Assembly (NCBI GenBank): GCA_021300395.1
Contig: JAJTEO010000002.1
Span: forward strand, 6,768 to 70,767
Direction: 5' to 3'
DNA length: 64,000 nucleotides
Source of the DNA: Fluviicola sp.
GTDB taxonomy: Bacteria > Bacteroidota > Bacteroidia > Flavobacteriales_D > Crocinitomicaceae
Positions 4,086-19,800 of this stretch are shown in pieces; the stretch's first letter is position 1; each line of letters begins with the position of its first letter. The position numbers were made by a program, and so were the translations under genes. The notes beneath the pieces were generated by a model that made no database searches, was not told the origin of the DNA, and saw nothing but the letters and a program-made list of their open reading frames with translations.

Positions 4086-6914
4086 ATGGAGTATAATTTT
4101 AGCGAAATCGAACCAAAATGGAGAAAATTCTGGGCTGAAAATAAAACCTTTAAAGCAGATAATTCATCTGAAAAACCAAAGTTTTATGTATTAGATATGT
4201 TCCCTTATCCTTCTGGTGCAGGTTTACATGTTGGTCACCCACTTGGTTACATCGCTTCTGATATTTATTCACGTTTCAAACGTTTACAAGGTTTTAATGT
4301 ATTGCATCCAATGGGTTACGATTCATTTGGTTTACCTGCTGAACAATATGCAATTCAAACAGGACAACATCCTGTAATTACAACAGAGGAAAATATTGCT
4401 CGATATAGAGATCAATTAGACAAAGTTGGTTTCTCGTTCGATTGGGACAGAGAGGTTCGTACTTCATCTCCTGAATATTACAAATGGACACAATGGATTT
4501 TTATTCAATTATTTGATTGTTGGTACAATAACAAAACGAATAAAGCAGAACGAATTTCAGGTTTAGTTGCTGAATTTGAGGCAAATGGAAATGCATCTGT
4601 TCATGCTTGTTCTGATTACAATGGTACTTTTTCTGCTACTGAATGGAATGCTTTCAACGAACAAGAAAAAGAAGCAATTCTTCAAGAGTACCGTCTGGCT
4701 TATTTAGCTGATTCATGGGTAAACTGGTGTCCTGCTTTGGGAACAGTTTTAGCAAATGATGAAATCGTAAATGGTGTTTCTGAACGTGGTGGTCACCCAG
4801 TTGAACAAAAATTAATGCGTCAATGGTCGATGCGTATCAAAGCGTATGCTGAACGTTTAATTCAAGGTTTAGAAAATGTAGAATGGACAGATTCTATTAA
4901 AGATATTCAACGCAACTGGATTGGGAAATCGATTGGGGCGTCTGTAAAATTTGAAGTGTTGGCTTCGACTCCGCTCAGCCAACAATCAACTTCGCTCAGC
5001 CAACATATCGAAGTTTTCACAACTCGTCCTGATACTATTTTTGGGGTTTCATTTATGGTGTTAGCACCGGAACATCCTTTAGTTGAAGAAATTACAACTG
5101 CTGAATACAAAGATGCTGTTGAAAATTATAAAAAAGCGGCTTCTTTAAAAACAGAACGTGATCGTCAGTCAGATGTGAAAAACATTACGGGACAATTCAC
5201 AGGAGCTTATGCTATTCACCCTTTTACAGGAGATAAAGTTCAAATTTGGATTGGAGATTATGTACTGGCTTCTTATGGAACAGGTGCTGTAATGGCTGTT
5301 CCTTGTGGTGATCAACGTGATTGGGATTTCGCAAAGCATTTCAACTTAGAGATTAAAAATATTTTTGCGGATAAAGATATTTCTGAAGCGGCTTATACTG
5401 AGAAAGATGCTGTAATTGCTAATTCAGATTTCTTAAACGGATTAGAAGCAAAAGTTGCCATGCAAAAAGCAATCGAAGCGATTGAAGCAAAAGAAATTGG
5501 TAAAGGAAAAACGAATTACCGTTTACGTGATGCGGTGTTTTCAAGACAACGTTATTGGGGTGAACCTTTCCCAGTTTATTACAAAAATGGATTGCCTGTG
5601 ATGATTGAAACGCAACATTTACCAATCATTCTTCCTGAAGTAGAAAATTATTTGCCAACTGCAGATGGTCAACCACCGTTAGGGAATGCAAAAACATGGG
5701 CTTGGGATACTACTAAAAACGAAGTAGTTTCCAATGAATTGATTAACAATGAAACGATCTTTCCGTTGGAATTAAACACAATGCCAGGATGGGCGGGAAG
5801 TTCTTGGTATTTCTTACGTTACATGGACGCTCAAAACGAAGCAGAGTTTGTAAGTAAAAAACAAGCAGATTACTGGGGACAAGTAGATTTATACATCGGT
5901 GGTTCTGAACACGGAACAGGTCACTTATTGTATTCTCGTTTCTGGACAAAATTCTTATTTGATCAAGGATTTATCAATTTTGATGAACCATTTAAAAAGA
6001 TGATCAACCAAGGAATGATTTTGGGTAGAAGTAGCTTTGTTTACCGAATCAAAGACACAAATAAATTTATTACAAACTCTTTAAAATCGAATTACGAAAC
6101 GATTCCATTACACGTTGATATTTCAATCGTTGATAATGATAAATTAGATATCGAAGCATTTAAAAATTGGCGTTCTGATTATGCAGATGCTGAATTTATT
6201 TGCGAAGAAGATGGGACATACATTTGCGGTCATGAAGTTGAAAAAATGTCGAAATCGAAATTCAACGTTCAAACGCCTGATGAATTAGTAGAAAAATTCG
6301 GAGCAGATACATTGAGAATGTACGAAATGTTCTTAGGTCCATTGGAGCAAAGTAAACCATGGGATACAAAAGGTATCAATGGCGTTCACAACTTCTTACG
6401 TAAGCTTTGTCGTTTGTTTGAAGGAGAATTAACTTCTGGCGAACCGACAAAAGAATCGTTAAAAACATTACACAGAACCATCAAGAAAATTGGGGATGAT
6501 TTAGAGCGTTTTTCATTCAATACAGGAGTTTCTAACTTCATGATTTGTGTGAATGAATTGACGGATCAAAAATGTAATAATAAAGTTATTTTACAAGAAT
6601 TGGTGATTTTACTTTCTTCTTATGCACCACATTTATGTGAAGAATTATGGGTAAAATTAGGAAACGAAGCAGGAACATTGAGTTATGCTAAATTCCCAAC
6701 ATTTGATGAAAGTGTTTTAGTTGAAGCTAATTTCTCTTACCCTGTTTCATTTAATGGTAAAGTACGTTTCAAAGTGGAATTACCTTTAGCAATGACACCT
6801 CAAGAAGTAGAGAAAGAAGTAATGAGCAAAGAAGAAGCGAAAAAATACCTAGAAGGAAAAGATCCTAAAAAAGTGATCGTTGTTCCAGGTAGAATTGTGA
6901 ATGTTGTTTTGTAG
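4086..6914 (+). CDS. leuS: leucine--tRNA ligase
   Basis: 942 aa with class I HIGH (HVGHPLGY) and KMSKS motifs, FTTRPDTIFG editing-domain entry and full-length LeuS architecture. Confidence 0.97.
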   Translation: MEYNFSEIEPKWRKFWAENKTFKADNSSEKPKFYVLDMFPYPSGAGLHVGHPLGYIASDIYSRFKRLQGFNVLHPMGYDSFGLPAEQYAIQTGQHPVITTEENIARYRDQLDKVGFSFDWDREVRTSSPEYYKWTQWIFIQLFDCWYNNKTNKAERISGLVAEFEANGNASVHACSDYNGTFSATEWNAFNEQEKEAILQEYRLAYLADSWVNWCPALGTVLANDEIVNGVSERGGHPVEQKLMRQWSMRIKAYAERLIQGLENVEWTDSIKDIQRNWIGKSIGASVKFEVLASTPLSQQSTSLSQHIEVFTTRPDTIFGVSFMVLAPEHPLVEEITTAEYKDAVENYKKAASLKTERDRQSDVKNITGQFTGAYAIHPFTGDKVQIWIGDYVLASYGTGAVMAVPCGDQRDWDFAKHFNLEIKNIFADKDISEAAYTEKDAVIANSDFLNGLEAKVAMQKAIEAIEAKEIGKGKTNYRLRDAVFSRQRYWGEPFPVYYKNGLPVMIETQHLPIILPEVENYLPTADGQPPLGNAKTWAWDTTKNEVVSNELINNETIFPLELNTMPGWAGSSWYFLRYMDAQNEAEFVSKKQADYWGQVDLYIGGSEHGTGHLLYSRFWTKFLFDQGFINFDEPFKKMINQGMILGRSSFVYRIKDTNKFITNSLKSNYETIPLHVDISIVDNDKLDIEAFKNWRSDYADAEFICEEDGTYICGHEVEKMSKSKFNVQTPDELVEKFGADTLRMYEMFLGPLEQSKPWDTKGINGVHNFLRKLCRLFEGELTSGEPTKESLKTLHRTIKKIGDDLERFSFNTGVSNFMICVNELTDQKCNNKVILQELVILLSSYAPHLCEELWVKLGNEAGTLSYAKFPTFDESVLVEANFSYPVSFNGKVRFKVELPLAMTPQEVEKEVMSKEEAKKYLEGKDPKKVIVVPGRIVNVVL

Positions 6915-6974
6915 GATATAGATTACAGATTGGCAATTTGCAAATTAGCAGATTTAATAATTCTTTAAATACTA

Positions 6975-7010
6975 AAAAAGCGAATCAAAATTAATTGATT
7001 CGCTTTTTTT
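6975..7010. terminator. bidirectional rho-independent terminator (leuS / MORN-repeat gene)
   Basis: AAAAAGCGAATCAA/TTGATTCGCTTTTT stem flanked by A-run and T-run between convergent genes. Confidence 0.75.
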
Positions 7011-7030
7011 ATGATTAATAATTTTATATC

Positions 7031-8725
7031 CTATTTCGGAGAAAAAGTACCGTCTTTCACTTCCATTCCGTTAGCAAATGTTTTTTCAATCGTTACTTTT
7101 CCTTTTTCGTTGTAAACTAAGAATTTTCCGTGTTTTATACCTCCTTTATAATTGATTTCAGAAGTAATTTTTCCTCTTCGATCATATTGTTTCATTGGTC
7201 CGTCTAATTCTCCTTCTTTATAGTTTGTAACGATTGCAGCCATTTTTCCACCAGGATAATATGCAATCCACTCTCCGTCTTTTTTACCGTTTTTGAAATC
7301 TCCTTCTTCTGTTTTTCTAAAATCTTTTGCTGAATAAGATGCTGAATGTCCATCTTTTACGCTTTCTTTAATTTCACGTCCTTTCATGAAACCGTATTTA
7401 ACTTTAGATTTTTCTTTAACTACTTTATAGGTCACTACATCTTTTGGACTTCCATTTTCGAAGTAATCTACCCATTCTCCTGTTTTGAAGTTGTCTTTAT
7501 AAAAACCAGTTAATTTTGGATGACCAGAAGGATAAAATGATTTCCATACACCATTCATTAATCCTTTTTTAAATGAAACTGAATTCTTCAAAACAGCATT
7601 GTCCCAATAATTCAACCATTCTCCTTCTTCTTTTCCATTTACGTAAACTCCATCCATTAATAAGACTTCATTTTCGTACCATGTTCTCCAACGACCGTTT
7701 TTCTCATCGTTTGCAAAATCACCTTCTTTAAATTTCTTTCCGTTTTGATACCAATACGTCCAATGACCTGTTTTTTTATCATCCGTATATTCAGCAGTAT
7801 AAGAAACTTGATTTCCTGTTGGATACCAATATGTCCATTTACCATTTTGTTTATCTTTCAAGAAAGAACCTTGCATATCCAAAGAGCCAGTATTCGTGTA
7901 CCAAGTCCACTCCCCTGTTTTTTGTCCTTCTAAATATTGTCCTTTTACTTGCAGACGTTTCTTGTCATAGAAGTATTGGTAATCACCATCTAATAATCCA
8001 TTTTTGTAATGTGTGATTTTTTCAGTTTCACCTGTATAATAAGAATAGATCCATTCTCCATCCATTTTACCATTTTTGAAACTTCCTGTTAACAGTTTGT
8101 ATCCGTAAATACTGTTTTCTTCAAAAGGACCATCTTTCAAGCCATCTTTATAAGCATAATATTCTTTTAATGTTCCTGTGTTATGATACACAAACATCTC
8201 ACCTGTTCCATTTGTAATCGTTTGTGTGTGAACAGAATCGTCAATCCAAAATGAGCGAACATAGTTTACACTATCTACTTCTTCTTCGTGAGATTTTTCT
8301 TTTCCATCGATGTAATAATATTTCCAAATACCGAATGGTCTATCGTCTTTAAAACTTCCTTCTTTGGCTAATTTTCCATTTTCATTCCATTCACGAGAGA
8401 TACTGTCTTGCTTATCCATTTTGAAATAGCCTTCTTGTTTTGGTTTTCCATTTGGATAATAAACCATCACTTTTCCATTCAATTTTCCTCTGTAATAATT
8501 TCGTTCTTCTTCTATTGAACCAAACTTGTCAAAGTAAATCCATTTTCCGTGATTGTCTTCCGTTTCTCCTAATTGATCAACATAATATGAACCTGTTGAT
8601 TGAATTTTAGTTTTATTAAAATCCCAATATTGTGATACCCTTTTTGAAAGATTTTCTTTTTTAATTTCTTGTGCAAAAAAGAAAGAAGGTAGAAAAATTA
8701 GTAGAAATAAATTGTACTTAAACAT
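7031..8725 (-). CDS. secreted MORN-repeat-variant (YwqK-like repeat) protein
   Basis: Signal peptide plus about 20 iterations of G-x-W-x-Y/W-Y-x-N-G-x-K repeats. Confidence 0.7.
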   Translation of the reverse strand: MFKYNLFLLIFLPSFFFAQEIKKENLSKRVSQYWDFNKTKIQSTGSYYVDQLGETEDNHGKWIYFDKFGSIEEERNYYRGKLNGKVMVYYPNGKPKQEGYFKMDKQDSISREWNENGKLAKEGSFKDDRPFGIWKYYYIDGKEKSHEEEVDSVNYVRSFWIDDSVHTQTITNGTGEMFVYHNTGTLKEYYAYKDGLKDGPFEENSIYGYKLLTGSFKNGKMDGEWIYSYYTGETEKITHYKNGLLDGDYQYFYDKKRLQVKGQYLEGQKTGEWTWYTNTGSLDMQGSFLKDKQNGKWTYWYPTGNQVSYTAEYTDDKKTGHWTYWYQNGKKFKEGDFANDEKNGRWRTWYENEVLLMDGVYVNGKEEGEWLNYWDNAVLKNSVSFKKGLMNGVWKSFYPSGHPKLTGFYKDNFKTGEWVDYFENGSPKDVVTYKVVKEKSKVKYGFMKGREIKESVKDGHSASYSAKDFRKTEEGDFKNGKKDGEWIAYYPGGKMAAIVTNYKEGELDGPMKQYDRRGKITSEINYKGGIKHGKFLVYNEKGKVTIEKTFANGMEVKDGTFSPK

Positions 8726-8764
8726 ATTTAAAAGTTTATTAAATAACTTAAATTTTGAAATTTG

Positions 8765-9385
8765 TTACATCATTTTTAGGATGCCTCTTACGATCAAGAA
8801 AGCTCCAAACCCTAGAAAAATAATTCCTATGAAATGATTTAATGTGTTTAATCTTTTCTCTGTAACCAATGGTCTCAATTTTTTAGCTCCTAAGATTTTC
8901 AAGAAATCAATTGAAAAATATGTAATTAGAATAATTAGAACAAATGGTAATTGTGATTCTTTTCCATGGATAGTTAAAATACTGAACCAATAGAAGATAA
9001 CCATTGGATTAAAGAAGTTTAAAATAAATCCTTTGAAAAATAATTTCCAATAATTTTGTTGAATGACATTTCCATCTTCATCTAAAACCACTTTTTTCTG
9101 TTTTTTAAAGTAGGAGACAATTCCATACGTTAAAAATAAGATTCCAGCAATTAATTTAGCTTTATCATTGTTTTCACCAGCTTCGGTGATTGAGGCAACT
9201 TTCGAAAAGAAAAAATAGACTAAAGCAATGTAAATTAAGTCACTAAGTAAAACTCCGGCGTCAAATGAGATGGCAGAACGAACACCTTTGCGGATACTAG
9301 TTTCTAATAGCACAAAGAAGACTGGACCAATCATTATGCTTAAAACAAGTCCAGTAATAATTCCTTCTATAACAAATTCAATCAA
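8765..9385 (-). CDS. LysE/RhtB-family amino-acid exporter
   Basis: 206 aa, about 6 TM segments, N-terminal GPVFFVLLETSI motif typical of LysE translocators. Confidence 0.7.
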   Translation of the reverse strand: MIEFVIEGIITGLVLSIMIGPVFFVLLETSIRKGVRSAISFDAGVLLSDLIYIALVYFFFSKVASITEAGENNDKAKLIAGILFLTYGIVSYFKKQKKVVLDEDGNVIQQNYWKLFFKGFILNFFNPMVIFYWFSILTIHGKESQLPFVLIILITYFSIDFLKILGAKKLRPLVTEKRLNTLNHFIGIIFLGFGAFLIVRGILKMM

Positions 9386-9519
9386 TTTTTTTCAGATTGC
9401 GTATTCTACAAATATAGCATTTTCCTTTTTTTATGCAATGATTAAAAGCGTTGATCAACGGATTTGCAAAAAAATAACAGGTTATTTGCTGAAATAATTC
9501 ATTTTTAAAGGAAGTTCAT

Positions 9520-9527
9520 TACATTTG
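9520..9527 (+). promoter_or_regulatory. candidate -7 promoter box (TACATTTG)
   Basis: TAnnTTTG match 60 nt upstream of the 9587 ATG, embedded in a TTCATTA..TAATGAA inverted repeat. Confidence 0.3.
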
Positions 9528-9586
9528 CATTAATGAATGGAAAAATGGATTTTGTTACATTCAAAAACTAATTTATTTTAAAAATT

Positions 9587-9946
9587 ATGAAGATTGCAGC
9601 AGCAAATAAAAAATTAGATGAAATCATTGCGAAAGTTTCAAAAGAAGGTGTTTTAGCAAGTGGTTTAATTGAAGATTTGAAAGAATTAAGAGAGTTTGCT
9701 CTAAAAGAACAAGATCCATTAGTGGTTAAAGTATTACGTTTAACTTATGAATTTTTAAGTGAGCGTGAAGCATTTGATGTAAAAGGTCAATTTGAAGAAG
9801 ACGAAGAAGGAAATGAATATCCTTTGGAAATCGAAGATCAAGAAAACTTATTGTATTTGTTAGATCTTTTGAAAAAAGCAGATCACAAAATTAACCGTGA
9901 GGAAATTAAAGATTACAGATCAGCTTTAAAATTAGAGTTGTATTAA
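9587..9946 (+). CDS. small acidic hypothetical protein
   Basis: 119-aa ORF with coding-like composition, followed by a strong terminator. No motif recognised. Confidence 0.55.
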   Translation: MKIAAANKKLDEIIAKVSKEGVLASGLIEDLKELREFALKEQDPLVVKVLRLTYEFLSEREAFDVKGQFEEDEEGNEYPLEIEDQENLLYLLDLLKKADHKINREEIKDYRSALKLELY

Positions 9947-9964
9947 TCAAAATAAGATTGAAAC

Positions 9965-9996
9965 AAAAAGGGGGAAATTTGATTTCCCCCTTTTTT
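9965..9996. terminator. bidirectional rho-independent terminator
   Basis: GGGGGAAAT/ATTTCCCCC perfect 9-bp stem with 3-nt loop, A-run upstream and T6 downstream, between convergent genes. Confidence 0.8.
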
Positions 9997-10015
9997 GTGT
10001 TCGATTGTTTAGAAA

Positions 10016-10699
10016 TTATTTAATTCCTTTCAATTTCTTATTTACTTCTTCAACTTTCTCTACTTGAGTTTTGATTTCAGTTTTCTTTTTCTCTTGATCA
10101 GCTTTGTTTTGTTCGATTTTTTTCTCAGCTTCTTCAATTTTTTTCTTATAATCTTCGATGTCTTTCTCGTATCCAACTTTATCTTTTTCTAACGATTCTT
10201 GTTCTTTTTGAAATCCTTTTAAGATTTTTTCTTGATCTTTCACTTCTTCAGCTACAAACTCTTTTGCTGAATTAATTCCAAATTCTTTTAATCTCGCAAC
10301 CATAGCTGTATATTGAACTTTATGATCAGAACTAGACATGTAAGCACCCCCTAAATCGAATGCAAAGGCAACTACTACATTCCCGTCTTTCGCACTTACA
10401 ATTTTAGCAAATCCATCAAACATTTTTTCGCCCATTTCTTTTGTTTGAGCCTGCATTGAAGAATATTCACCTTTTGAAGAATTGTATTTTCCTCCCCAAT
10501 CTTTTACCTCATCTTTAATGCGTTTTTCCATGAAATCTTCTGTAACGTGAGGAATTGTAACTAAAATAGCATTCTTGCTACCTGCATTAAATGTGCTGTT
10601 TTTTTCATCAATCTCAATGTTTTGAGAAAATGCAATAATCGAAAATAAGATGGTTGTAATAGATAATAAATACTTTTTCATTGGTAATAAATTTGTCAT
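10016..10699 (-). CDS. secreted hypothetical protein with C-terminal K/E-rich coiled coil
   Basis: Signal peptide (KKYLLSITTILFSIIAFSQN); start may be the ATG at 10681. C-terminal 80 aa are heptad-like and K/E-rich. Confidence 0.6.
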   Translation of the reverse strand: MTNLLPMKKYLLSITTILFSIIAFSQNIEIDEKNSTFNAGSKNAILVTIPHVTEDFMEKRIKDEVKDWGGKYNSSKGEYSSMQAQTKEMGEKMFDGFAKIVSAKDGNVVVAFAFDLGGAYMSSSDHKVQYTAMVARLKEFGINSAKEFVAEEVKDQEKILKGFQKEQESLEKDKVGYEKDIEDYKKKIEEAEKKIEQNKADQEKKKTEIKTQVEKVEEVNKKLKGIK

Positions 10700-10798
10700 T
10701 AATTAGTAATAAGCGTGTTTATAATTTTAAATATAGCTTTTTTTTTCAATTTCGAATACAAAGGCAAATTCTATTCCAATTTTAATTAATTTTAGACC

Positions 10799-11917
10799 AT
10801 GCAATTCAAAGACATCATTGGACAACAAGAATTAAAGCATCATTTTATTCAAAGAATACAAAATGAGAAGATAAGTCATGCCCAATTAATTCTTGGTAAG
10901 CCTGGTTATGGTGCTCTTCCGTTAGCGCTTGGATATGTTCAATATTTGTTTTGCGAAAATAAGTCAGAGACAGATAGTTGTGGGCAATGTTCTTCTTGCA
11001 AAAAAGTACAAGATTTACAGCACCCTGATTTGCATTTTTCTTTTCCTGTAGTTTTAGCAATTGACAAAAAATCAGATGCTTTTTTACCGCAATGGAGAGA
11101 ACAAGTAAAGGAAAATCCCTATTTCAATCTGACGCAATGGATCAAACGAATTGATTCTAAAGAGCGAAAACCAGTTATTGGAACGGATGAAAGTCAAGAA
11201 ATTATCAAGAAATTAAGTCTTAAGTCATACGAAGGCGGATTTAAAGTCATGATCATTTGGATGGCAGAAGAAATGAACCCGGCTTGTTCCAATAAATTAT
11301 TGAAAATTTTAGAAGAACCACCTGCTAAAACCTTGTTTTTATTAGTGTGTGAATCTCCTGAATACATTTTACCAACGATTATTTCAAGAACACAATTGGT
11401 AAAAACTCCAAGAATCAATATGACCGATTTCAGTCATTTCTTGAGAGCAAAACATTCACTAAATTCAAGTTCAGCGGATAGTTTAGCTGCTCGAACTGAT
11501 GGAGATTACATTGAAGCTCTGGAAATGTTAGGTGATCATCAAGAAGAAGATGAAAACCGTGATTTGTTTATCAAATTGATGCGTGTTTGCTATAAAAAAG
11601 ATGTACTTCCGATGATGGATTGGGCGGAAGAAGCAAGTGCACTTTCAAAAGATCGTCAAAAAGTGTTTTTACGTTATGCGTTACACATGTTTAGACAAAG
11701 TATGTTGCGTAATTATACCGAAAATCAATTAACTAGAGTTTCTGAAGAAGAAGATGCCTTTTTGAAAAACTTTGCACGTTTCATTACTGGAAACAATGTC
11801 TTTGATTTCATGGACACTTTTAATGATGCTCATTACCACATTGAACGAAATGCTCATGCAAAAATTCTATTTACGAATTTGTGCTTTAAGGTGATGCGTT
11901 TTATTCATTTTGCTTAG
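10799..11917 (+). CDS. holB: DNA polymerase III subunit delta'
   Basis: N-terminal AAA+-like fold (HAQLILGKPGYGALPLA), Zn module CGQCSSCKK, KLLKILEEPP and SRTQ motifs. Confidence 0.85.
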   Translation: MQFKDIIGQQELKHHFIQRIQNEKISHAQLILGKPGYGALPLALGYVQYLFCENKSETDSCGQCSSCKKVQDLQHPDLHFSFPVVLAIDKKSDAFLPQWREQVKENPYFNLTQWIKRIDSKERKPVIGTDESQEIIKKLSLKSYEGGFKVMIIWMAEEMNPACSNKLLKILEEPPAKTLFLLVCESPEYILPTIISRTQLVKTPRINMTDFSHFLRAKHSLNSSSADSLAARTDGDYIEALEMLGDHQEEDENRDLFIKLMRVCYKKDVLPMMDWAEEASALSKDRQKVFLRYALHMFRQSMLRNYTENQLTRVSEEEDAFLKNFARFITGNNVFDFMDTFNDAHYHIERNAHAKILFTNLCFKVMRFIHFA

Positions 11918-12011
11918 GGGGTAGTTATAAACAACTGCTCGACAAAAATCATGCTTTGGGTTTGAAAGAATCGATAAAATAAAAAAATTATATTCAGAAT
12001 AAATTAAAATC

Positions 12012-12263
12012 ATGGACAACGTATCATCTTTAATAACAATTACATTTGGAATAATAATATTAATTATAAATATCATTTTGGTGATTAATATAATGAAAGC
12101 AGGAAAGTATTCTGAATTAACATATGAATTAATTAGAAGTCATATCAATAAATTAAATGAAAAGGAAAATAGACAAAACAAAGAAGAAATAGAGAAAAAG
12201 AATTTTAATAAGAGTATTCATGATGTTTGGAATGAAATTCAGAACGAAAATGAAAATAAATAA
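12012..12263 (+). CDS. small single-pass membrane protein with K/E/N-rich tail (hypothetical)
   Basis: 83 aa. The hydrophobic segment ITITFGIIILIINIILVINI is followed by a charged tail. First ORF of the AT-rich insert. Confidence 0.4.
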   Translation: MDNVSSLITITFGIIILIINIILVINIMKAGKYSELTYELIRSHINKLNEKENRQNKEEIEKKNFNKSIHDVWNEIQNENENK

Positions 12264-12310
12264 TGTCAATTGATAACAGTTGTTATGCAACAAAACGTTA
12301 TGTATTATAA

Positions 12311-13348
12311 ATGATGAAACCAATTATTCAAGATTTTAATACTTCAGAAAACTCAGTTACTTCTACTCTAAGGACTATTGTTCTTTTCGGAAGAAATGTT
12401 TCTACTTATAAGTTTGCTTTAGCTTCTACACTTCTCAAATTAAAACCTAAAAACTTTATCACTTATGAAGAATTGAGGGATGAATTTTTAAACTCATTAT
12501 TAACCCACTATAAAAAGAATCCTCATCAATATCAAGCAGGTGAAAACAGTCTTACAAGAGCTTTCGACAAATATATGCTCGATGGTAATTGGAACGATTT
12601 ATTGATAAGTGCAGAAAAGAATATATACAATAATGTTTTTGATGCATTCCATAATGTAGGCGGTGGTTCAATTAAAAAAGAACATCTCCTTTTTGAGCAT
12701 TTACCTCATGAGAAAAAACTTGTTTTAACTGATAATATCAATGAATTACTAGAACAACGGAATTATTTAGAAGTATTGAAGAATGAGAATGAAAGTCGTT
12801 GGATGATTGTTGAAGAAGCTTGGAAGAATAATTTGTCTCCAAATTTTTTAGTTTACAATCAATCTACTAATGAATTTATATCCGTTTCATCAACAGATAG
12901 AATTAATCTTCGAAGTGCTGTTTCAGTTCTACTACCATATCAACATGGTTGTTGCTTTTATTGTAAAAAGAAAATCAATCCTTACGCAAATTCAGAAGAT
13001 TCAGATTTTCCTGATGTTGATCACTTCATTGCTCACTCGTATTTTAAACGACCCGAATTAATACATATAAATCCAGATGGTGTTTGGAATCTTGTAATTG
13101 CTTGTAAAGAATGTAATCGAGGTATAGGTGGTAAATTTGATAGAATACCCGATCTATATTATCAAAGTGAAATTATTAATCGAAATCTTCTATTTACTGA
13201 AGAACACCGTCACTCACTAAAAAATTCAATCCTGCTTAGTTTAAATGCCCAAAACCACAATGAAGTTCTAAGAAGAATGTATTCTCTATTTGATAAATTC
13301 AAAATAATTGAAGGCTGGAAACCACTTATAATTTATAACTATGAATAA
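12311..13348 (+). CDS. HNH endonuclease with unassigned ~210-aa N-terminal domain
   Basis: C-terminal HNH signature: CCFYCKKK (CxxC) ... DVDHFIAHS ... WNLVIACKECNRGIGGK. I cannot place the N-terminal part (STYKFALASTLLKL helix) in any family. Confidence 0.8.
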   Translation: MMKPIIQDFNTSENSVTSTLRTIVLFGRNVSTYKFALASTLLKLKPKNFITYEELRDEFLNSLLTHYKKNPHQYQAGENSLTRAFDKYMLDGNWNDLLISAEKNIYNNVFDAFHNVGGGSIKKEHLLFEHLPHEKKLVLTDNINELLEQRNYLEVLKNENESRWMIVEEAWKNNLSPNFLVYNQSTNEFISVSSTDRINLRSAVSVLLPYQHGCCFYCKKKINPYANSEDSDFPDVDHFIAHSYFKRPELIHINPDGVWNLVIACKECNRGIGGKFDRIPDLYYQSEIINRNLLFTEEHRHSLKNSILLSLNAQNHNEVLRRMYSLFDKFKIIEGWKPLIIYNYE

Positions 13349-13709
13349 TCCATTTAAATCAATTCCTGAATCAAGAATATTATCTGAATCAGAAGATTTT
13401 TTAATAATAAAAGACATTTTCCCTGTATCACCGGGACACATACTTATCATATCAAAGCGTGAAGTAACTGACTTTTTTGCATTAACCGATTCGGAAAGAA
13501 ACCAACTAAATAAAAGCATTCTAATCGCAAAATCATTAATTGAATTGGAATATAAACCGAATGGTTATAATATTGGTATGAATTGCGGTGAAGCTGCAGG
13601 ACAAACAGTGTTTCATTTTCATTGTCATGTTATTCCAAGATATATTGGGGATATGGAGAATCCCAGAGGAGGTGTAAGACATTGTGTTGAAGGTAAAGGA
13701 AATTATTAA
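13341..13709 (+). CDS. HIT (histidine triad) family hydrolase
   Basis: PGHILIISKRE, GYNIGMNCGEAAGQTV and the triad HFHCHVIPR. The ATG overlaps the HNH stop by 8 nt (ATGAATAA). Confidence 0.85.
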   Translation: MNNPFKSIPESRILSESEDFLIIKDIFPVSPGHILIISKREVTDFFALTDSERNQLNKSILIAKSLIELEYKPNGYNIGMNCGEAAGQTVFHFHCHVIPRYIGDMENPRGGVRHCVEGKGNY

Positions 13710-13854
13710 TAACAAACCTTAAAAGCATGTAAGAAGAATTATCCGAGTATTAGCTTACATTAAAACCGTTAATTAAACCATCCCATTTCTATTTAAACTC
13801 ATTCTAAATTGACCTTTATGACAATCAAATGACATTTCTTTTTGATCTGTAGAT

Positions 13855-13862
13855 TAAATTTG
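13855..13862 (+). promoter_or_regulatory. candidate -7 promoter box (TAAATTTG) for hemA operon
   Basis: TAnnTTTG match 18 nt upstream of the hemA ATG. Confidence 0.35.
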
Positions 13863-13879
13863 TGTTAAAATAGGATAAA

Positions 13880-15106
13880 ATGCTCAACAACTTTCATAGT
13901 ATTGCGTTTACCCACAGGAACTTAGATGTTTCAGACATTGGTAAACTTCATATCGAAGAAGCAAAACAACAGGAGCGATTATTGGCGTTGAAAGAGGAAT
14001 TACACTTAGATGAACTAATGTTTTTGTCTACTTGTAACCGTGTTGAATTCTTATTTTGTACTACCGAAACAACTAATTTTGACTTTTTAGTTCAATTTTT
14101 TCATACACTTTACCCAGATTTTACAACAGAAACGGTTCATCTTTTTGCTGAAAAATCAGCTGTTTTTGTTGGTATTGAGGCTGTTGAACATTTATTGTGT
14201 GTTGCCTCTTCTATCGATTCAATGGTAATTGGTGAAAGAGAAATCATTACGCAAGTTAGAAATGCGTTCGAGCAATCTAAAAAAATGGGATTGACTGGTG
14301 ATTTCATTCGTTTGGTATTACGTCAAACAATTGAGACTGCTAAAAAAGTGTATACTGAAACAAGTATTGCTACAAAACCAGTATCTGTTGTTTCTTTAGC
14401 TTATCACCGTTTACGTGACATGAATATTCCAATGTCTGCTCGTATTTTGATTATTGGAGCTGGAACGACAAATACCAATATGGGTCGTTTCTTACGTAAA
14501 CATGGATTTAAAAATTTCGTTGTTTTCAATAGAACTTTATCTAAAGCTGAATCATTAGCGAAAGACTTAAAAGGTAATGCATATCCATTAACAGATTTAG
14601 CAACTTATTCAGATGGTTTTGATGTCATCATCACTTGTACAGGTTCTGATACACATATTATTACTCCAGAAATTTATTCTCAATTATTACAAGGAGAAAA
14701 AGATCGTAAAGTTGTTATCGACATCGCTTTACCGCAAGATTTACACCCTTCAATTGTTGAACATGAAGTTGTAACACATATTTCTGTGGAAGCGCTTCAA
14801 AAAATTTCGAATGCGAATTTAAAAGAACGTTCGAAAGAAATTCAACATGTGGAAGAAATCATCAACGAAGCAATTTTTGAATTTAAACACATTCATAAAA
14901 TTCGTTCAGTTGAATTAGCAATGAGAGAAGTTCCTCAAAAAGTGAAAGAAATTAGAGAAACTGCTGTCAACGAAGTTTTCAAAAATGAATATGAATTATT
15001 AGACGATAATTCAAGAGAAATATTGGATAAAATAATCGGCTACATGGAAAAGAAATACATGAGCGGACCAATGATTTTAGCTAAAGAAATACTATTAAAA
15101 AAATAA
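13880..15106 (+). CDS. hemA: glutamyl-tRNA reductase
   Basis: STCNRVEF active-site Cys motif, GEREIITQV, Rossmann IIGAGTTN. Followed by hemC and hemD. Confidence 0.92.
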   Translation: MLNNFHSIAFTHRNLDVSDIGKLHIEEAKQQERLLALKEELHLDELMFLSTCNRVEFLFCTTETTNFDFLVQFFHTLYPDFTTETVHLFAEKSAVFVGIEAVEHLLCVASSIDSMVIGEREIITQVRNAFEQSKKMGLTGDFIRLVLRQTIETAKKVYTETSIATKPVSVVSLAYHRLRDMNIPMSARILIIGAGTTNTNMGRFLRKHGFKNFVVFNRTLSKAESLAKDLKGNAYPLTDLATYSDGFDVIITCTGSDTHIITPEIYSQLLQGEKDRKVVIDIALPQDLHPSIVEHEVVTHISVEALQKISNANLKERSKEIQHVEEIINEAIFEFKHIHKIRSVELAMREVPQKVKEIRETAVNEVFKNEYELLDDNSREILDKIIGYMEKKYMSGPMILAKEILLKK

Positions 15107-15112
15107 AATACT

Positions 15113-16015
15113 ATGCAACACATTGTAATCGGATCAAGAGGAAGTGATTTAGCTTTATGGCAAGCAAATCATGTTAAAAGACAATTGGAAGATTTAGGTT
15201 GCACAGTAGAAATAAAAATTATCATTACACAAGGTGATGCTATTCAAAATTTAAGTTTCGATAAATTAGAAGGAAAAGGATTTTTCACGAAAGAAATCGA
15301 AAAAGAATTATTGGAAAAAACGATTGACCTTGCTGTTCACTCTCATAAAGATTTAGAAACAAATTCTCCTGAAGGATTAATCATTGCATGTGTTTCAGAA
15401 AGAGAAGATCCATCTGATTTATTGTTAATCGCTAAATCAGCAGTTGATACAAATTCTCAATGGAACTTAAAACAAAATGCAATTGTTGGTACTTCTTCAG
15501 CAAGAAGAAAATCACAAGTTGTTCGTTTCAGAGAAGATGTTGAAATCAAAGATTTAAGAGGAAATGTTCCAACTCGTATTCAAAAATTACGTGATGGAAA
15601 CTACGATGCAATTCTTTTAGCGAAAGCTGGTGTTGATCGTTTACAAATTGATTTGTCTGAATTTGAAGTTGTTGTATTAAATCCAAAAGCGTTTGTTCCT
15701 GCTCCAGCTCAAGGAGTTTTAGGTTTACAAATTCGTGAAGAAGATACCGCTTTGTTTGATATTCTTCAAAAAATGAATCATCCTGAAATTCAAGAGCAAA
15801 TTGCTGTTGAACGTAAAGTGTTGAATTTATTAGAGGGTGGATGTCAATTGCCATTAGGTGTTTACTGCGATGAAAATCATACCGTATATGTTTCTCATTC
15901 TGAAGATTGGACAACTGGAGCTGCGTGGTATGAATATCAAGCAGAAGAATTAGAAGGTTTAGCAGAATTAATCGTAGAAGATTTAACTTCACCTTTGGAA
16001 GACGAAGAACTTTAA
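15113..16015 (+). CDS. hemC: hydroxymethylbilane synthase (porphobilinogen deaminase)
   Basis: IGSRGSDLALWQA, GTSSARRKSQ, RGNVPTRIQKL and GGCQLPLG cofactor-Cys motifs. Confidence 0.93.
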   Translation: MQHIVIGSRGSDLALWQANHVKRQLEDLGCTVEIKIIITQGDAIQNLSFDKLEGKGFFTKEIEKELLEKTIDLAVHSHKDLETNSPEGLIIACVSEREDPSDLLLIAKSAVDTNSQWNLKQNAIVGTSSARRKSQVVRFREDVEIKDLRGNVPTRIQKLRDGNYDAILLAKAGVDRLQIDLSEFEVVVLNPKAFVPAPAQGVLGLQIREEDTALFDILQKMNHPEIQEQIAVERKVLNLLEGGCQLPLGVYCDENHTVYVSHSEDWTTGAAWYEYQAEELEGLAELIVEDLTSPLEDEEL

Positions 16016-16026
16016 AACGTAAGTTC

Positions 16027-16689
16027 TTGTCCAAAAAGCTTTTCATATCAAAACCTATTATTGAAGTTCAAGAACTAGTTGAATTTTGCAAGGAAAATGA
16101 TTTTGAATTAGTTGCCCATTCTTTTTTATCGTTCAAAGCGATTCCTTTTGAATTTCCTGTTGAAACAGATGTTGTTTTTTTCGGCAGCAAAAGAGGTGTT
16201 GAATATTTTATTGATCAACAATCAATACCTGAAAATATTGAAATTGCATGTGTCGGAAATGGAACGGCAAATTATTTAAAATCTAAAGGTTATAATCCAT
16301 CTTTTATCGGAGAAAAATCAGGGAAAATTGATTCTGTTGCTGTAGATTTTAAAACTTGGTTAGGTGATAGAAAAGTTGTTTTTGGTCAAGCGAAAGATTC
16401 TAATCGTTCTATTTCTAGTGTTATTAATTCTTCAAATTCAACTGAAATTTCTGTTTACGAAACCATCATCAATTCTGCTACAATTGTAGAAAGTGACATC
16501 TATGTTTTTACGAGTCCTTCCAATTTGGATGGCTTTTTACTTGAGAATTGTATAGCAGAAAATTCAATCATTATCGCTTGGGGTGATACAACTGAAAAAC
16601 ATTTGATTAAAAATGGTTTTATTGTTCACCATAAATTAAAAAATTCATCTATTTCGGAATTACTTGAAATCTTACATTGTTTAAGATAA
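16027..16689 (+). CDS. hemD: uroporphyrinogen-III synthase
   Basis: 220 aa, position after hemC, HEM4-like pattern (VFTSPSN, CVGNGTA). TTG start as listed; no nearby ATG. Confidence 0.7.
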   Translation: MSKKLFISKPIIEVQELVEFCKENDFELVAHSFLSFKAIPFEFPVETDVVFFGSKRGVEYFIDQQSIPENIEIACVGNGTANYLKSKGYNPSFIGEKSGKIDSVAVDFKTWLGDRKVVFGQAKDSNRSISSVINSSNSTEISVYETIINSATIVESDIYVFTSPSNLDGFLLENCIAENSIIIAWGDTTEKHLIKNGFIVHHKLKNSSISELLEILHCLR

Positions 16690-16764
16690 AACATCGTTTT
16701 GTAAAATTTTAATAAACACGTAATTCTACTTATTTTCTATAATTATTGGCGTAATCAAACTTTA

Positions 16765-16800
16765 TAATTTTGTAATAATGTGGATTTTATGTTAAATTTG
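16765..16800 (+). promoter_or_regulatory. two candidate -7 boxes (TAATTTTG at 16765, TAAATTTG at 16793) upstream of the adhesin gene
   Basis: Both match TAnnTTTG. The second is 22 nt upstream of the ATG at 16823. Confidence 0.35.
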
Positions 16801-16822
16801 AGCAACTTAAAAAACACTGTTT

Positions 16823-19800
16823 ATGAAAAAAGGATTACTGAAATGGTCTTTTTTGGTTTTTTCAATGCTTGTAAGTTTTGCATATAATGCGCAAAATTTT
16901 GTCTTGACAATGCCAAATACCGACACAACCAATTGCAATGGTATTGCAAAAATCGACACCACTATTTTTCAATCAACTAACTGGTACTGGACAAATAGTT
17001 CTTCAAACGTTCTTCAACAAGGAGGAAATCAATTAAACAATTTATGTGCTGGAACTTATATGTTAAAGTATAATGATTCAACTAACACGTTGAATACATA
17101 TACATTTAATATCGTTTTTTCTGCAAATAACCAAAACAATTGTGCCTCATTAAACGGTACTTTCATAGTAAAGGCACACAACCCAAACCAAAGTGCAAAC
17201 TGTAATGGTGGTGCAGCAATTAATGCTTACGGTGGTACTGCACCTTACAATTTCCAATGGTCTAATACTGCTGGTGGAGCAACAATATCAACAAATGATT
17301 CGATTTTTGATGTTTGTTCTGGTAACTACTTCGTGAAAATTACAGATGCAAATAACTGTTTCAAAGATATTTCAATGTTTGTGCCTCAAGATACAAGCAC
17401 TTCTACAAACAACTGTTCTTCTTTGAATGGTAACTTCACTGTTAAACCACACAACCCAAACCAAAGTGCAAACTGTAACGGTGGAGCAACTATTAATGCT
17501 TACGGAGGAACTGCACCTTATTCTTTCCAATGGTCTAATACACAAGCAGGAGGAAATGTTATTACTACGAACGATTCTTTATTCAATGTTTGTTCTGGTA
17601 CTTACTTCGTGAAAATTACAGATGCAAATAACTGTTTCAAAGATATTTCTATGTTTGTGCCTCAAGATACAAGTTCATCTACAAACAACTGTTCTTCTTT
17701 GAATGGTAACTTCACTGTTAAACCGCATAACCCAAACCAAAGTGCAAACTGCAACGGTGGAGCAACTATTAATGCTTACGGAGGAACTGCACCTTATTCT
17801 TTCCAATGGTCTAATACGCAAGCAGGAGGAAATGTTATTACTACAAACGATTCATTATTCAATGTATGTTCCGGTACTTACTTCGTGAAAATTACAGATG
17901 CAAATAACTGTTTTAGAGATATTTCAATGTTTGTGCCGCAAGATTCTAGTTCAAACCAAAATAATAATTGCGCTAACTTTAGTGCTTATATCAGCAATTT
18001 AATAGCATGTACTGATTCAACAGATTGTAACGGTACAATTGATGTGACAGCAAATGGTGGACAAGCTCCATATAACTATTCTTGGTCTACTGCTTCTTTT
18101 GGAAATGTTCCTCAAGCACTTAACGTTTGTGCAGGTAATTATAATATAACAGTTACTGATTCAAATGGATGTTATGTTAACTTAAACGCATTTGTTCCTT
18201 ACGCAGATTCTACTTCAAATAACAATTGTGTTACATTGAATGGAAATTATGTTGTTAAACCACATAATCCAAATCAAAGTGCAAACTGTAACGGTGGGGC
18301 AACTATTAATGCTTACGGTGGAACTGCACCATATTCTTTCCAATGGTCAAACACTCAAGCAGGAGGAAATGTTATTACTACAAATGATTCATTGTTAAAT
18401 GTTTGTTCAGGAACATACTTCGTGAAAATTACGGATGCAAATAACTGTTTCAAAGATATTTCAATGTTTATTCCACAAGATACAAGTACAACAAATAATA
18501 ATCCATGTTCTAATTTTACAGCTAACTTAAATGTTATTCCTGTAACGGATTCTGTTAACTGTAATGGTGGATTAAATGTTGTTACAAATGGAGGATCTAT
18601 GCCTTTCAATTTTACTTGGACGAATGCAACTTCAAATGGACCACAAGTAAATAATTTATGTTCTGGAAATTATTCGGTTACTGTTGTTGATGCAAATAAC
18701 TGCACATTAACTTTAACAGCATTTGTACCATTTAATAACTCAAACAATAATCCATGCGCTAACTTTAATGCGAATGTGAATACAGTTGTTCCTGCTTCAG
18801 ATTCTGTAAACTGTAATGGGATGGTTAACATTCTTACAAATGGAGGTTTAACACCTTACACGTTTAATTGGTCACAATCATCTACTTTAAATTCGCCTCA
18901 AGCAAACAATTTATGTCCTGGAAACTACACTGTGATCGTTACTGATGCAAATAATTGTAATGATACATTAAATGTTGTTGTTCAATATAGCGATTCAACA
19001 GTTGTTAATCCTTGTTCTAATTTTACTGCTAATTTACAAATCTTCCCAACTACAGATTCTACAAGTTGTAATGGTGGATTAAATGTATTCACTAATGGTG
19101 GAGTGGCTCCATTTAATTTCTCATGGTCAAATGCAGGTGTTAATACTCCAAATGCAAATAACTTATGTATTGGTAATTACACTGTAACAGTTGTAGACGC
19201 GAATGCTTGTACAGTTACATTAAATGGATATGTTCCATTCTCAATGAACCCATGTGCTAACTCTACGTTACAAGTTGCTTTAACTTCAACGAATGTTACA
19301 GCAAATCCTTGTAATGGTTCAATAACATCAACTGTTAACGGAGGAATTGGACAGTATTACTATTTATGGAATACAGGTGCTACTTCAACTTCTTTAAATT
19401 CAGTTTGTCAAGGAATGTACTCTTTAACTGTTAAGGACAGTTTAGGTTGTCAAAGAGCTACTTCTATTTATGTTGGTCAAGCTATTGATTCTACTATGGC
19501 TTTGAATGCATATGTAATACCAACTGGAATTACTCAAGCAGGAATTTGTGATGGTAGTGCATCAGTGGTTGCTTTTGGTGGTGTTACTCCATATTCATAC
19601 GCATTTGATAATGGAACTTCAAATCAAACAGCAACTGGTTTATGTTCAGGATTACAAAATGTAACTGTAACAGATGCTGCTGGTTCTTCAATTACATTAA
19701 ACTTTATTATCTCATCACCACAGAATGTAATTGTAAACACTACATACCAAGATTCAACAGTTGTAGATAGTTTATATAACCCAGCAGTTTCAAACTGTAC

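Follow-up and report, generated by a model that had tools for sequence, protein, structure and literature searches.

A candidate restriction-like module of an HNH nuclease and a HIT enzyme on a predicted integron-type gene cassette of Fluviicola

Introduction

Fusions of a winged-helix (wH) domain with an HNH nuclease domain act as type IV restriction enzymes. MutT-like genes sit beside homologues of SauUSI, and sanitising of the nucleotide pool has been proposed as their role. For the histidine triad (HIT) protein ThsC of Thoeris systems, degradation of a nucleotide signal, i.e. a function as an off-switch, has so far only been hypothesised. Integron gene cassettes are known stores of defence systems, and for classical integrons the insertion of cassettes outside att sites has been shown experimentally. 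Complete integrons have been reported to be rare in Bacteroidetes, though the phylum is listed among integron hosts. Here we describe a locus from Fluviicola sp. (contig JAJTEO010000002.1) that touches on all of these systems. In a stretch of 64 kb, referred to as the window, the gap between the core genes holB and hemA holds three open reading frames (ORFs), of which ORF2 encodes an HNH nuclease and ORF3 a HIT enzyme. Together these two genes form a candidate defence module on what appears to be an integron-type gene cassette.

Two cassettes between holB and hemA

As judged from its boundaries and terminal structures, the strain-specific segment of the window (positions 11925–13768) consists of two putative integron-type gene cassettes, located 8 nt downstream of the holB stop codon and outside any integron. 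The second cassette (12298–13768, + strand, 1471 bp) comprises ORF2 (12311–13348, + strand, 345 aa) and ORF3 (13341–13709, + strand, 122 aa). It starts at G/TTATGTATT and ends at AAAACCG/TTAATT (the slash marks the boundary of the unit). At the nucleotide level it is 84% identical to two other loci (L001 and L002), but only over positions 12291–13733, which correspond to both genes with about 20 nt on either side. The flanks of the cassette are unrelated to those of L001 and L002, and the contexts of the six loci L001 to L006 all differ from each other.

The first cassette (11925–12297, + strand) contains ORF1 (12012–12263, + strand), which encodes a protein of 83 aa with one N-terminal hydrophobic segment and a tail rich in Lys, Glu and Asn. 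It starts at G/TTATAAAC and ends at CAAAACG/TT. Its DNA is 82–87% identical to seven other loci (L175–L181), in this case over positions 11924–12268 only. Since the two blocks of homology (11924–12268 and 12291–13733) are separate, the insert is made up of two units. An initial annotation of the locus had treated it as a single three-gene insert; the coordinates and the common strand that it gave for the three ORFs were correct, as was the overlap of the ORF3 start codon with the ORF2 stop codon, which amounts to 8 nt (in ATGAATAA). The insert is flanked on the left by holB (10799–11917, + strand; DNA polymerase III delta', Pfam PF13177 DNA_pol3_delta2, 3e-43) and on the right by hemA (13880–15106, + strand; glutamyl-tRNA reductase, Pfam GlutR_N, 4e-34), both of which are conserved.

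A comparison of the junctions across loci revealed that every unit begins at G/TT and that the motif (C)AAAAC(C)G lies in front of this position. In the window, the junctions G/TTATAAAC, CAAAACG/TTATG and AAAACCG/TTAATT could be read directly. Each unit ends in an imperfect palindrome, the 5' box of which is the reverse complement of the first bases of the same unit. The box and the corresponding start are AACCATAAC and GTTATGGTT in L001, TAGCTACAAC and GTTGTAGCTA in L006, and GCTACAAC and GTTGTAGC in L004, L172 and L173. In the site of the window itself the inverse core is decayed. Starts at G/TT together with self-complementary terminal palindromes are the signature of integron cassettes; both features that characterise such a cassette, an attC-type structure and a G/TT boundary with a start complementary to the inverse core, were thus found. 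A generic repeat finder detected no meaningful direct or inverted repeats at the flanks, and the real sites became visible only by comparing junctions across loci.

The attC-like site of cassette 2 (13715–13776, + strand) is an imperfect palindrome with AAC...GTT boxes. Its 5' box is partly decayed and reads AACCTTAAA, as compared with AACCATAAC in L001. A truncated attC-like site is present at the junction of cassettes 1 and 2 (12269–12305, + strand), in which both boxes, ATAAC and AAACGTTAT, remain but a deletion has removed the inner stem. In an alignment of eight sites folded into a two-helix structure, 72.7% of the cells are paired, as compared with 25–40% when the partner strand is slid. 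Nine pairs in the stems have changed on both sides, and none of 500 shuffles reached the observed covariation score. A covariance model (R1) was built from the aligned attC-like sites, including that at 13715–13776, which as a training sequence scores 59.4 bits. A search with R1 in the window and 20 Bacteroidota loci (245 kb in total) yielded 24 sites at E<0.05, all of them on the cassette strand and 15 of them outside the training set; in L006 (8 sites) and in L172 they alternate with ORFs. In 677 kb of other loci, which served as control, there was no match at E<=1. The truncated site scores 13.5 bits (E 0.097, with filters off) and is the best non-training match between positions 11500 and 14200.

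According to the initial annotation, the insert was clearly richer in A and T than both flanks. This impression was not borne out. The GC content of positions 11918–13879 is 0.285, which is at the 14th percentile of windows of the same size (mean 0.305, standard deviation 0.024). The individual values are 0.298 for ORF2, 0.317 for ORF3, 0.342 for holB and 0.323 for hemA; ORF1, with 0.21, is the sole markedly AT-rich gene of the insert. Because the insert lies within one standard deviation of the mean, we dropped composition as a sign of acquisition.

ORF1 is restricted to one lineage and stands outside the pair formed by ORF2 and ORF3. Of its 14 homologues, which are 82–100% identical, 12 have the full 83 aa and two are shorter fragments; the only named sources are metagenome-assembled genomes (MAGs) of Fluviicola. 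ORF1 and ORF3 both have 100% identical database entries under the name of a Fluviicola sp. MAG. No counterpart of ORF1 occurs in any of 80 loci with an ORF2-family gene, so the membership in the module that had been ascribed to it was abandoned. In four of the loci with visible downstream genes (L175–L178), the ORF1 homologue precedes HigB/HTH toxin-antitoxin genes. It is found there (at positions 5001–5252 or 3095–3346) in a hypervariable region adjoining mutS2, with upstream neighbours that vary among L175, L176/L177 and L178.

Insertion polymorphism and related arrays

The contig of a sister strain (L081, Ga0315909_10000271) is 97–98% identical to positions 4799–11926 and 13763–17677 of the window, and the flanking proteins are identical by 100% (holB) and 99% (hemA). 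Between the same breakpoints it contains 1.39 kb of unrelated DNA (L081:7129-8518, equivalent to 11927–13762 of the window). This DNA encodes a protein of 406 aa with four DUF4379 treble-clef zinc-finger repeats and a T5orf172/MUG113 (GIY-YIG-like) domain, which matches a PHROG family annotated as endonuclease (2e-39). A weak attC-like match, the best R1 match in L081, ends at the right-hand junction. The alternative allele is another candidate conflict cassette, and the holB–hemA gap, flanked by two core genes, is a hotspot of cassette exchange. Other relatives of holB (at most 75% identity) have no hemA within 6 kb downstream, and presence or absence of the insert can be read from the sister strain only. 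The horizontal acquisition assumed in the initial annotation is supported by the different cassette at the same site; the vehicle, integron-type cassettes, had been missed.

Further downstream, at 16823–20299, the window encodes a predicted surface protein of 1158 aa, which is built from repeated Cys/Asn-rich modules of about 90 aa. Its repeats gave overlapping matches to the sister strain at 17.1–18.9 kb, and their number or register may differ between the strains.

Sharp boundaries, the lack of a recombinase in the window and the presence of a nuclease in both alleles (HNH here, T5orf172/GIY-YIG-like in L081) are also what one would expect of a homing-type nuclease, i.e. if ORF2 spread its own cassette by cutting empty sites, with ORF3 as a passenger. 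The mobility is, however, explained by the attC-type boundaries with their G/TT crossover, which would be acted on by an integrase. A conserved enzyme partner that has been exchanged repeatedly (see below) is likewise unexpected for a homing endonuclease. In addition, 50,697 phage records contained no match to the ORF2 family at E 1e-8, and at 1e-3 only matches to the HNH domain appeared; IMG/VR yielded six weak loci of the family. We regard homing as highly improbable.

The 64-kb window does not encode a tyrosine recombinase. Integron-like arrays were observed in Bacteroidota MAGs, from Saprospiraceae and from marine or freshwater contigs, where ORFs alternate with attC-like sites on one strand (L006:1-10000, L172:1000-6500, L002:3600-8850 and L173/L174:3800-6000). 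In L006 the eight sites extend over 9 kb, and in L172 four sites follow an integrase gene. The arrays of L172 and L006, and possibly that of L002, are headed by a tyrosine recombinase co-oriented with the cassettes. The best solved relative of this enzyme is VchIntIA, the integron integrase of Vibrio, with 138 bits, as compared with 83 bits for XerD. A complete integron (IntI with its additional domain, attI and Pc) was not found. The Bacteroidota arrays may constitute an integron-like element of a separate class. Together with the holB–hemA hotspot, they bear on the question how defence genes move in this phylum, for which complete integrons have been described as rare.

The nuclease ORF2

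ORF2 comprises a family-specific domain (residues 1 to about 205), an HNH nuclease domain (about 206–290) and a C-terminal helical tail. The protein belongs to the HNH or His-Me finger nuclease superfamily. Its best PADLOC matches are the HNH effectors PtuB (5e-7), NsnC and PDC-M01B (5e-7 to 1e-3), all of which cover residues ~180–278 only. A profile of the ORF2 family matches the HNH domain of Cas9 with an E-value of 0.011. With the full AlphaFold model, Foldseek retrieved phage HNH proteins from BFVD at TM-scores of 0.44–0.52 (normalised to the target) and root-mean-square deviations of 1.3–3 Å. In an alignment of 34 family members Cys215, Asp237-His238, Trp259-Asn260 and Cys268-Asn269 are invariant, while Cys218 and Cys265 are kept in at least 90% of the sequences. 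The four cysteines 215, 218, 265 and 268 (CxxC...CxxC) probably form a zinc site, and the nuclease motifs are intact.

Conservation in the family extends over the whole protein. In the N-terminal 205 residues, the invariant polar and aromatic positions are Arg21, Asn29, Tyr33-Lys34-Phe35, Gln73, Arg163-Trp164 and Arg197. As already suspected in the initial annotation, this part matches no family. Residues 1–205 gave nothing significant in Pfam, NCBIfam and PADLOC or in phmmer and hmmsearch runs against the PDB. Foldseek found no significant structural neighbour of the domain, either with the full model (searched against PDB and BFVD) or with a separate N-terminal model (searched against PDB). 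The models are confident (pLDDT, the predicted local distance difference test, of 85.7 for full-length ORF2 and 89.5 for the N-terminal domain). The best Foldseek E-value was 0.48, and the weak matches (E 0.5–9) were mostly winged-helix proteins, together with ScoMcrA. The sole library model that spans both parts (residues 15–270) is phrog_338, annotated as "HNH endonuclease" (E 1e-12).

An exhaustive HMMER search with residues 1–205 yielded 235 representative clusters, all with the same architecture of about 340 aa or fragments thereof. Domain shuffling was accordingly rejected: the N-terminal domain is no reader module that moves between proteins. The single long match that might have been a natural fusion of nuclease and partner (P0094, 446 aa) was also discarded, as it carries just an N-terminal extension ahead of the conserved family sequence, which we read as a mis-called start.

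The family is widespread. We found 412 full-length homologues in the protein search and at least 551 loci in species-representative genomes. They are distributed over many phyla, among them Bacteroidota, Proteobacteria, Bacillota, Actinomycetota and Cyanobacteria.

ORF3 and its alternative partners

ORF3 belongs to the HIT superfamily, as the initial annotation had proposed: it matches the Pfam family HIT (PF01230) with 81 bits against a cut-off of 21.5 bits (1e-22). Its histidine triad, HFHCHVI, is kept in all 17 HIT proteins that are linked to an ORF2-family nuclease. These proteins come from several phyla and share a conserved tail of the form IPR..GD...PRGG.R.....K..Y. Look-ups centred on the HIT protein (3 proteins, 5 loci) found it directly after an ORF2-family gene in every case. 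ORF3 belongs to a HIT subfamily dedicated to HNH partners. Within Bacteroidota (L169–L172) the HIT proteins are 59–69% identical to ORF3 and the nucleases 31–57% identical to ORF2. This suggests that the nuclease evolves faster or that partners have been re-assorted between HNH clades.

To classify the partner genes we considered the immediate neighbours in the 80 ORF2-family loci. The pair of HNH and HIT genes recurs in other genomes and in unrelated contexts, as the initial annotation had anticipated; its view of the HIT protein as the defining partner did not hold. HIT genes are found in a minority of the loci (13 of 80; downstream of the nuclease gene in seven, directly upstream in five and divergent in one). 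The usual partner, in 55 of 80, is a gene for a class I S-adenosylmethionine (SAM) methyltransferase of about 200 aa, which mostly overlaps the nuclease gene and lies on the opposite strand in six cases. MazG-like PRA-PH proteins (NTP pyrophosphohydrolases) of about 108 aa occur in four loci, one of which has a HIT gene as well. Nine loci, two of them at contig ends, lack a recognised partner. In a neighbour-joining tree of the nucleases, HIT partners are scattered over at least five places and MazG-like partners over three, with methyltransferase partners in between. Thus, the type of partner switches repeatedly along the tree. The known relatives of all three partner folds act on small molecules, those of the HIT and MazG-like proteins on nucleotides.

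The predominance of a class I SAM fold brings to mind classical restriction-modification (R-M), in which the partner would modify host DNA and the HNH enzyme cut unmodified DNA. R-M systems are common cargo of mobile elements, and the methyltransferase matches the methyltransferase region of mad2 in PADLOC and, weakly, one model of a type II methyltransferase. However, this partner of only about 200 aa fits small-molecule families (Methyltransf_25/11, TehB, TPMT, BioC and UbiG), and neither the (D/N/S)PP(Y/F) motif, i.e. motif IV of DNA methyltransferases, nor a target-recognition domain was detected in it. In the window the partner is a HIT protein in the first place, and some loci do without any recognised partner. 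Very little probability remains for classical R-M.

HIT enzymes include aprataxin, and a function in DNA repair is conceivable in which ORF2 acts as a nickase and ORF3 cleans 5'-adenylated ends, with no role in conflict. The position of the pair between core genes and on the same strand as holB and hemA would agree with a housekeeping role. Yet the pair is present in one strain and replaced in another, and none of the other holB relatives has it at this position. Elsewhere it is found on plasmids, within cassette arrays and in further contexts that are unrelated to one another, and its HIT component can be replaced by a methyltransferase or a MazG-like protein. Moreover, ORF3, with 122 aa, consists of the HIT domain only and lacks the zinc finger of aprataxin. 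A repair function is thus very unlikely.

Genomic context

Some contexts of the ORF2 family resemble defence islands, with R-M systems, type IV enzymes, integrases and plasmids nearby, in agreement with the initial annotation. On a Hymenobacter plasmid, the HNH and HIT genes lie between a BPTD_3080 restriction enzyme with its methyltransferase on one side and NUDIX and DEAD-box helicase genes on the other. A megaplasmid of B. cereus combines an NTP pyrophosphohydrolase, the family HNH protein, a second HNH protein and a UvrD-type helicase, and on an Exiguobacterium plasmid the nuclease gene adjoins a type I R-M system and has no recognised partner. SRA-HNH type IV enzymes together with NUDIX genes were observed beside ORF2-family genes in L003:7472-8723 and L014:4560-5986, and NUDIX and DEAD-box helicase genes in L169:7873-10993. 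These nuclease or helicase genes with NUDIX neighbours echo the theme of the family itself, a nuclease plus a nucleotide hydrolase. L014 additionally contains an SLFN/NERD helicase, and HigB is also found among the neighbours of family loci.

Thirteen loci from Enterobacteriaceae share one recurrent context (L024, L038, L044, L045, L049, L050, L054, L057, L059, L062, L066, L078 and L080; hosts Kluyvera, Citrobacter, Yokenella and Phytobacter). They contain a pair of HNH and methyltransferase genes, with an integrase nearby, mostly upstream, in about nine of them; over the whole family, a tyrosine integrase is near the nuclease gene in 14 loci, about nine of which are enterobacterial. A tRNA-like stretch is present upstream in some, and a gene for a zinc-type alcohol dehydrogenase lies downstream. 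The arrangement looks like a small integrative island. A blastn search with the Kluyvera homologue gave no match in E. coli genomes. In Flavobacterium ovatum (L170) the HNH–HIT pair is cargo of an integrase/Rep element, with genes for an integrase, an HTH_17 protein and Rep upstream. Downstream of the pair (L170:5400-5500) there is sequence like the 3' end of a tRNA gene. This arrangement suggests cargo of a tRNA-integrated mobilisable element.

The neighbourhood also bears on a toxin-antitoxin function, in which ORF2 would be a toxic nuclease and its partner would neutralise it enzymatically, by (de)adenylylation in the case of HIT or by methylation in the case of the methyltransferase, and the pair would thereby stabilise an array or mobile element. 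Type VII antitoxins are enzymes, and the partner of the nuclease is always an enzyme, too. The genes are tightly coupled and overlap, the HIT partner has diverged less than the nuclease, and arrays and neighbouring cassettes carry toxin-antitoxin genes such as HigB/HTH. On the other hand, the nine loci without a recognised partner, even allowing for the two at contig ends, argue against an obligatory antidote, and the Exiguobacterium plasmid is a further example of a nuclease without one. The partner gene is sometimes convergent or divergent relative to the nuclease gene, and it is difficult to see how a MazG-like NTP pyrophosphohydrolase could serve as a protein-modifying antitoxin. Addiction is, in our view, unlikely.

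Proposed mechanism

Based on the anatomy of the cassette, the distribution of the family and the exchange of partners, we propose that cassette 2 is a compact defence module that works in a restriction-like manner and includes an exchangeable accessory for the processing of nucleotides. We assign a probability of roughly 0.55 to this proposal. Most of the uncertainty lies in its mechanistic half, i.e. in DNA cleavage, N-terminal sensing and the substrate of the accessory, and less in mobility, anatomy, distribution, partner exchange and context. ORF2 would be the effector, its C-terminal HNH domain cutting the DNA of an invader. The private N-terminal domain of about 205 residues most likely binds or senses the nucleic-acid target. 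ORF2 would be a stand-alone, type IV-like nuclease without constitutive toxicity. ORF3, as a nucleotide hydrolase or transferase, would fill the slot that is taken elsewhere by the SAM methyltransferase or the MazG-like enzyme. The shared task of these partners would be the processing of a nucleotide, as an optional safeguard that spares the host. The accessory could either clear modified or aberrant nucleotides set free by restriction (sanitising of the pool) or remove a nucleotide that, as a ligand, would activate the nuclease. The roles suggested for the HIT enzyme in the initial annotation, namely interference with resealing via ligase-AMP, breakdown of a messenger, or action as an antidote, are hypothetical.

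Several observations weigh against this proposal. The HNH assignment of ORF2 stands, but the signature is not as clean as the initial annotation had it: the single sequence scores 16.8 bits in Pfam, below the gathering threshold of 21.4 bits. The N-terminal domain has no significant relative in sequence or predicted structure, so that we infer a sensor rather than recognise one; it is possibly winged-helix-like, although the resemblance of the models is weak. Any single substrate that would unite the HIT, methyltransferase and MazG-like partners is hypothetical. Since the attC-like site of the window is partly decayed and no integrase is encoded in its vicinity, the cassette may have become fixed and is perhaps silent. 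Scans for sigma-70 promoters and intrinsic terminators gave counts at chance level, with Bacteroidota promoters lying outside the coverage of the scan. The label "integron" is used by resemblance: the integrase of the related arrays appears to lack the IntI-specific insertion (residues 182–248 of IntI4 are unaligned), and it scores 209 with the NCBIfam model TIGR02249, below the cut-off of 265. Finally, a PADLOC census of 119 neighbour proteins, run via a pseudo-alignment, lists families and not the matching proteins and is unusable for an enrichment of defence genes.

A more specific version of the proposed module, which we hold to be speculative and rather improbable as formulated, is a nuclease gated by or linked to a nucleotide. 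The N-terminal domain would then bind either a small nucleotide as its ligand or DNA with a modified base or backbone, and HIT, MazG-like and TehB/TPMT-like enzymes would interchangeably destroy or mask the same molecule. HINT-type HIT enzymes desulfurise nucleoside 5'-phosphorothioates, and TPMT/TehB-type enzymes methylate thiols; a concrete form may accordingly be a system linked to phosphorothioate or thio-nucleotides. If the nucleotide-gated version were true, it would amount to a novel type of defence module that brings along its own enzyme for switching it off or for sanitising the pool.

If the pair of ORF2 and ORF3 does defend against phages or plasmids, a widespread system (at least 551 species-level genomes) of about 1.4 kb would be added to the catalogue, and the fold of its sensor domain would be new. 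The swapping of HIT, MazG-like and methyltransferase partners would then offer a natural experiment on the nucleotide chemistry that accompanies restriction.

Comparison with known systems

Neither the ORF2 family nor the pair corresponds to a named model, in line with the initial annotation: Pfam (2025), NCBIfam (2026), PADLOC v2 and PHROGs provide only the label "HNH endonuclease" and no model of the pair. A literature search found no paper that names a pair of HNH with HIT, methyltransferase or MazG; the integron systems Sirona and Nemetona (HNH-related) were not compared by sequence.

Among the described systems, type IV HNH enzymes (SRA-HNH, PUA/EVE-HNH, wH-HNH and ScoMcrA) share with ORF2 an N-terminal non-catalytic domain followed by a C-terminal HNH domain with CxxC...CxxC. 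Like the ORF2 family, they have no cognate DNA methyltransferase and some of their loci lie in defence islands. Nucleotide pyrophosphohydrolases are found near both, as with SRA-HNH and NUDIX in L003 and L014. In contrast to these enzymes, ORF2 has an N-terminal domain that matches no known reader (SRA, PUA/EVE/YTH, DpnI-type wH, SBD or DUF3427) and never recombines with other nucleases, and the family usually comes with a dedicated, translationally coupled partner enzyme. Type II R-M systems differ in that the cassette of the window contains a HIT gene and no DNA methyltransferase, and the methyltransferase partner found elsewhere lacks the DPPY/NPPY motif of DNA methyltransferases.

With PtuB of Septu, ORF2 has only the HNH domain in common, and an ATPase of the PtuA type was found neither in the cassette nor among the recurrent neighbours, which separates the pair from Septu. 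ORF3 matches the PADLOC model of the HIT protein ThsC2 (3e-10), so that type II Thoeris provides a precedent for HIT as a defence accessory. The locus is not a Thoeris system, as the neighbours of ORF3 are holB, ORF1, ORF2 and hemA, with neither ThsA (SIR2/SLOG) nor ThsB (TIR).

The mobile unit itself resembles the defence cassettes of integrons, namely bacteriophage resistance integron cassettes (BRiCs) and the defence cassettes of sedentary chromosomal integrons, as well as cassettes inserted outside integrons, namely single attC sites or clusters of attC sites lacking an integron integrase (SALIN/CALIN) and attG insertions. Both are compact, promoterless units of one or two genes that end in a folded imperfect palindrome with AAC...GTT boxes, are exchanged at G/TT and have toxin-antitoxin cassettes as neighbours. 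In both, the same cassette is found in different arrays, and insertion at a chromosomal non-att site is possible. Differences from the usual cassettes are the Bacteroidota host and the unusual spacers between box and stem, with a conserved AAAAC before GTT. In addition, the integrases of the related arrays differ from those of usual integrons in pointing the same way as the cassettes and in missing the IntI-specific insertion. The papers on defence in integrons that were searched for HNH and HIT do not mention the HNH–HIT pair.

Taken together, the pair is best filed under two kinds that are already known, the defence modules with an HNH effector and the defence cargo of integron cassettes, within which its private sensor fold and the three-way exchange of partners are unusual.

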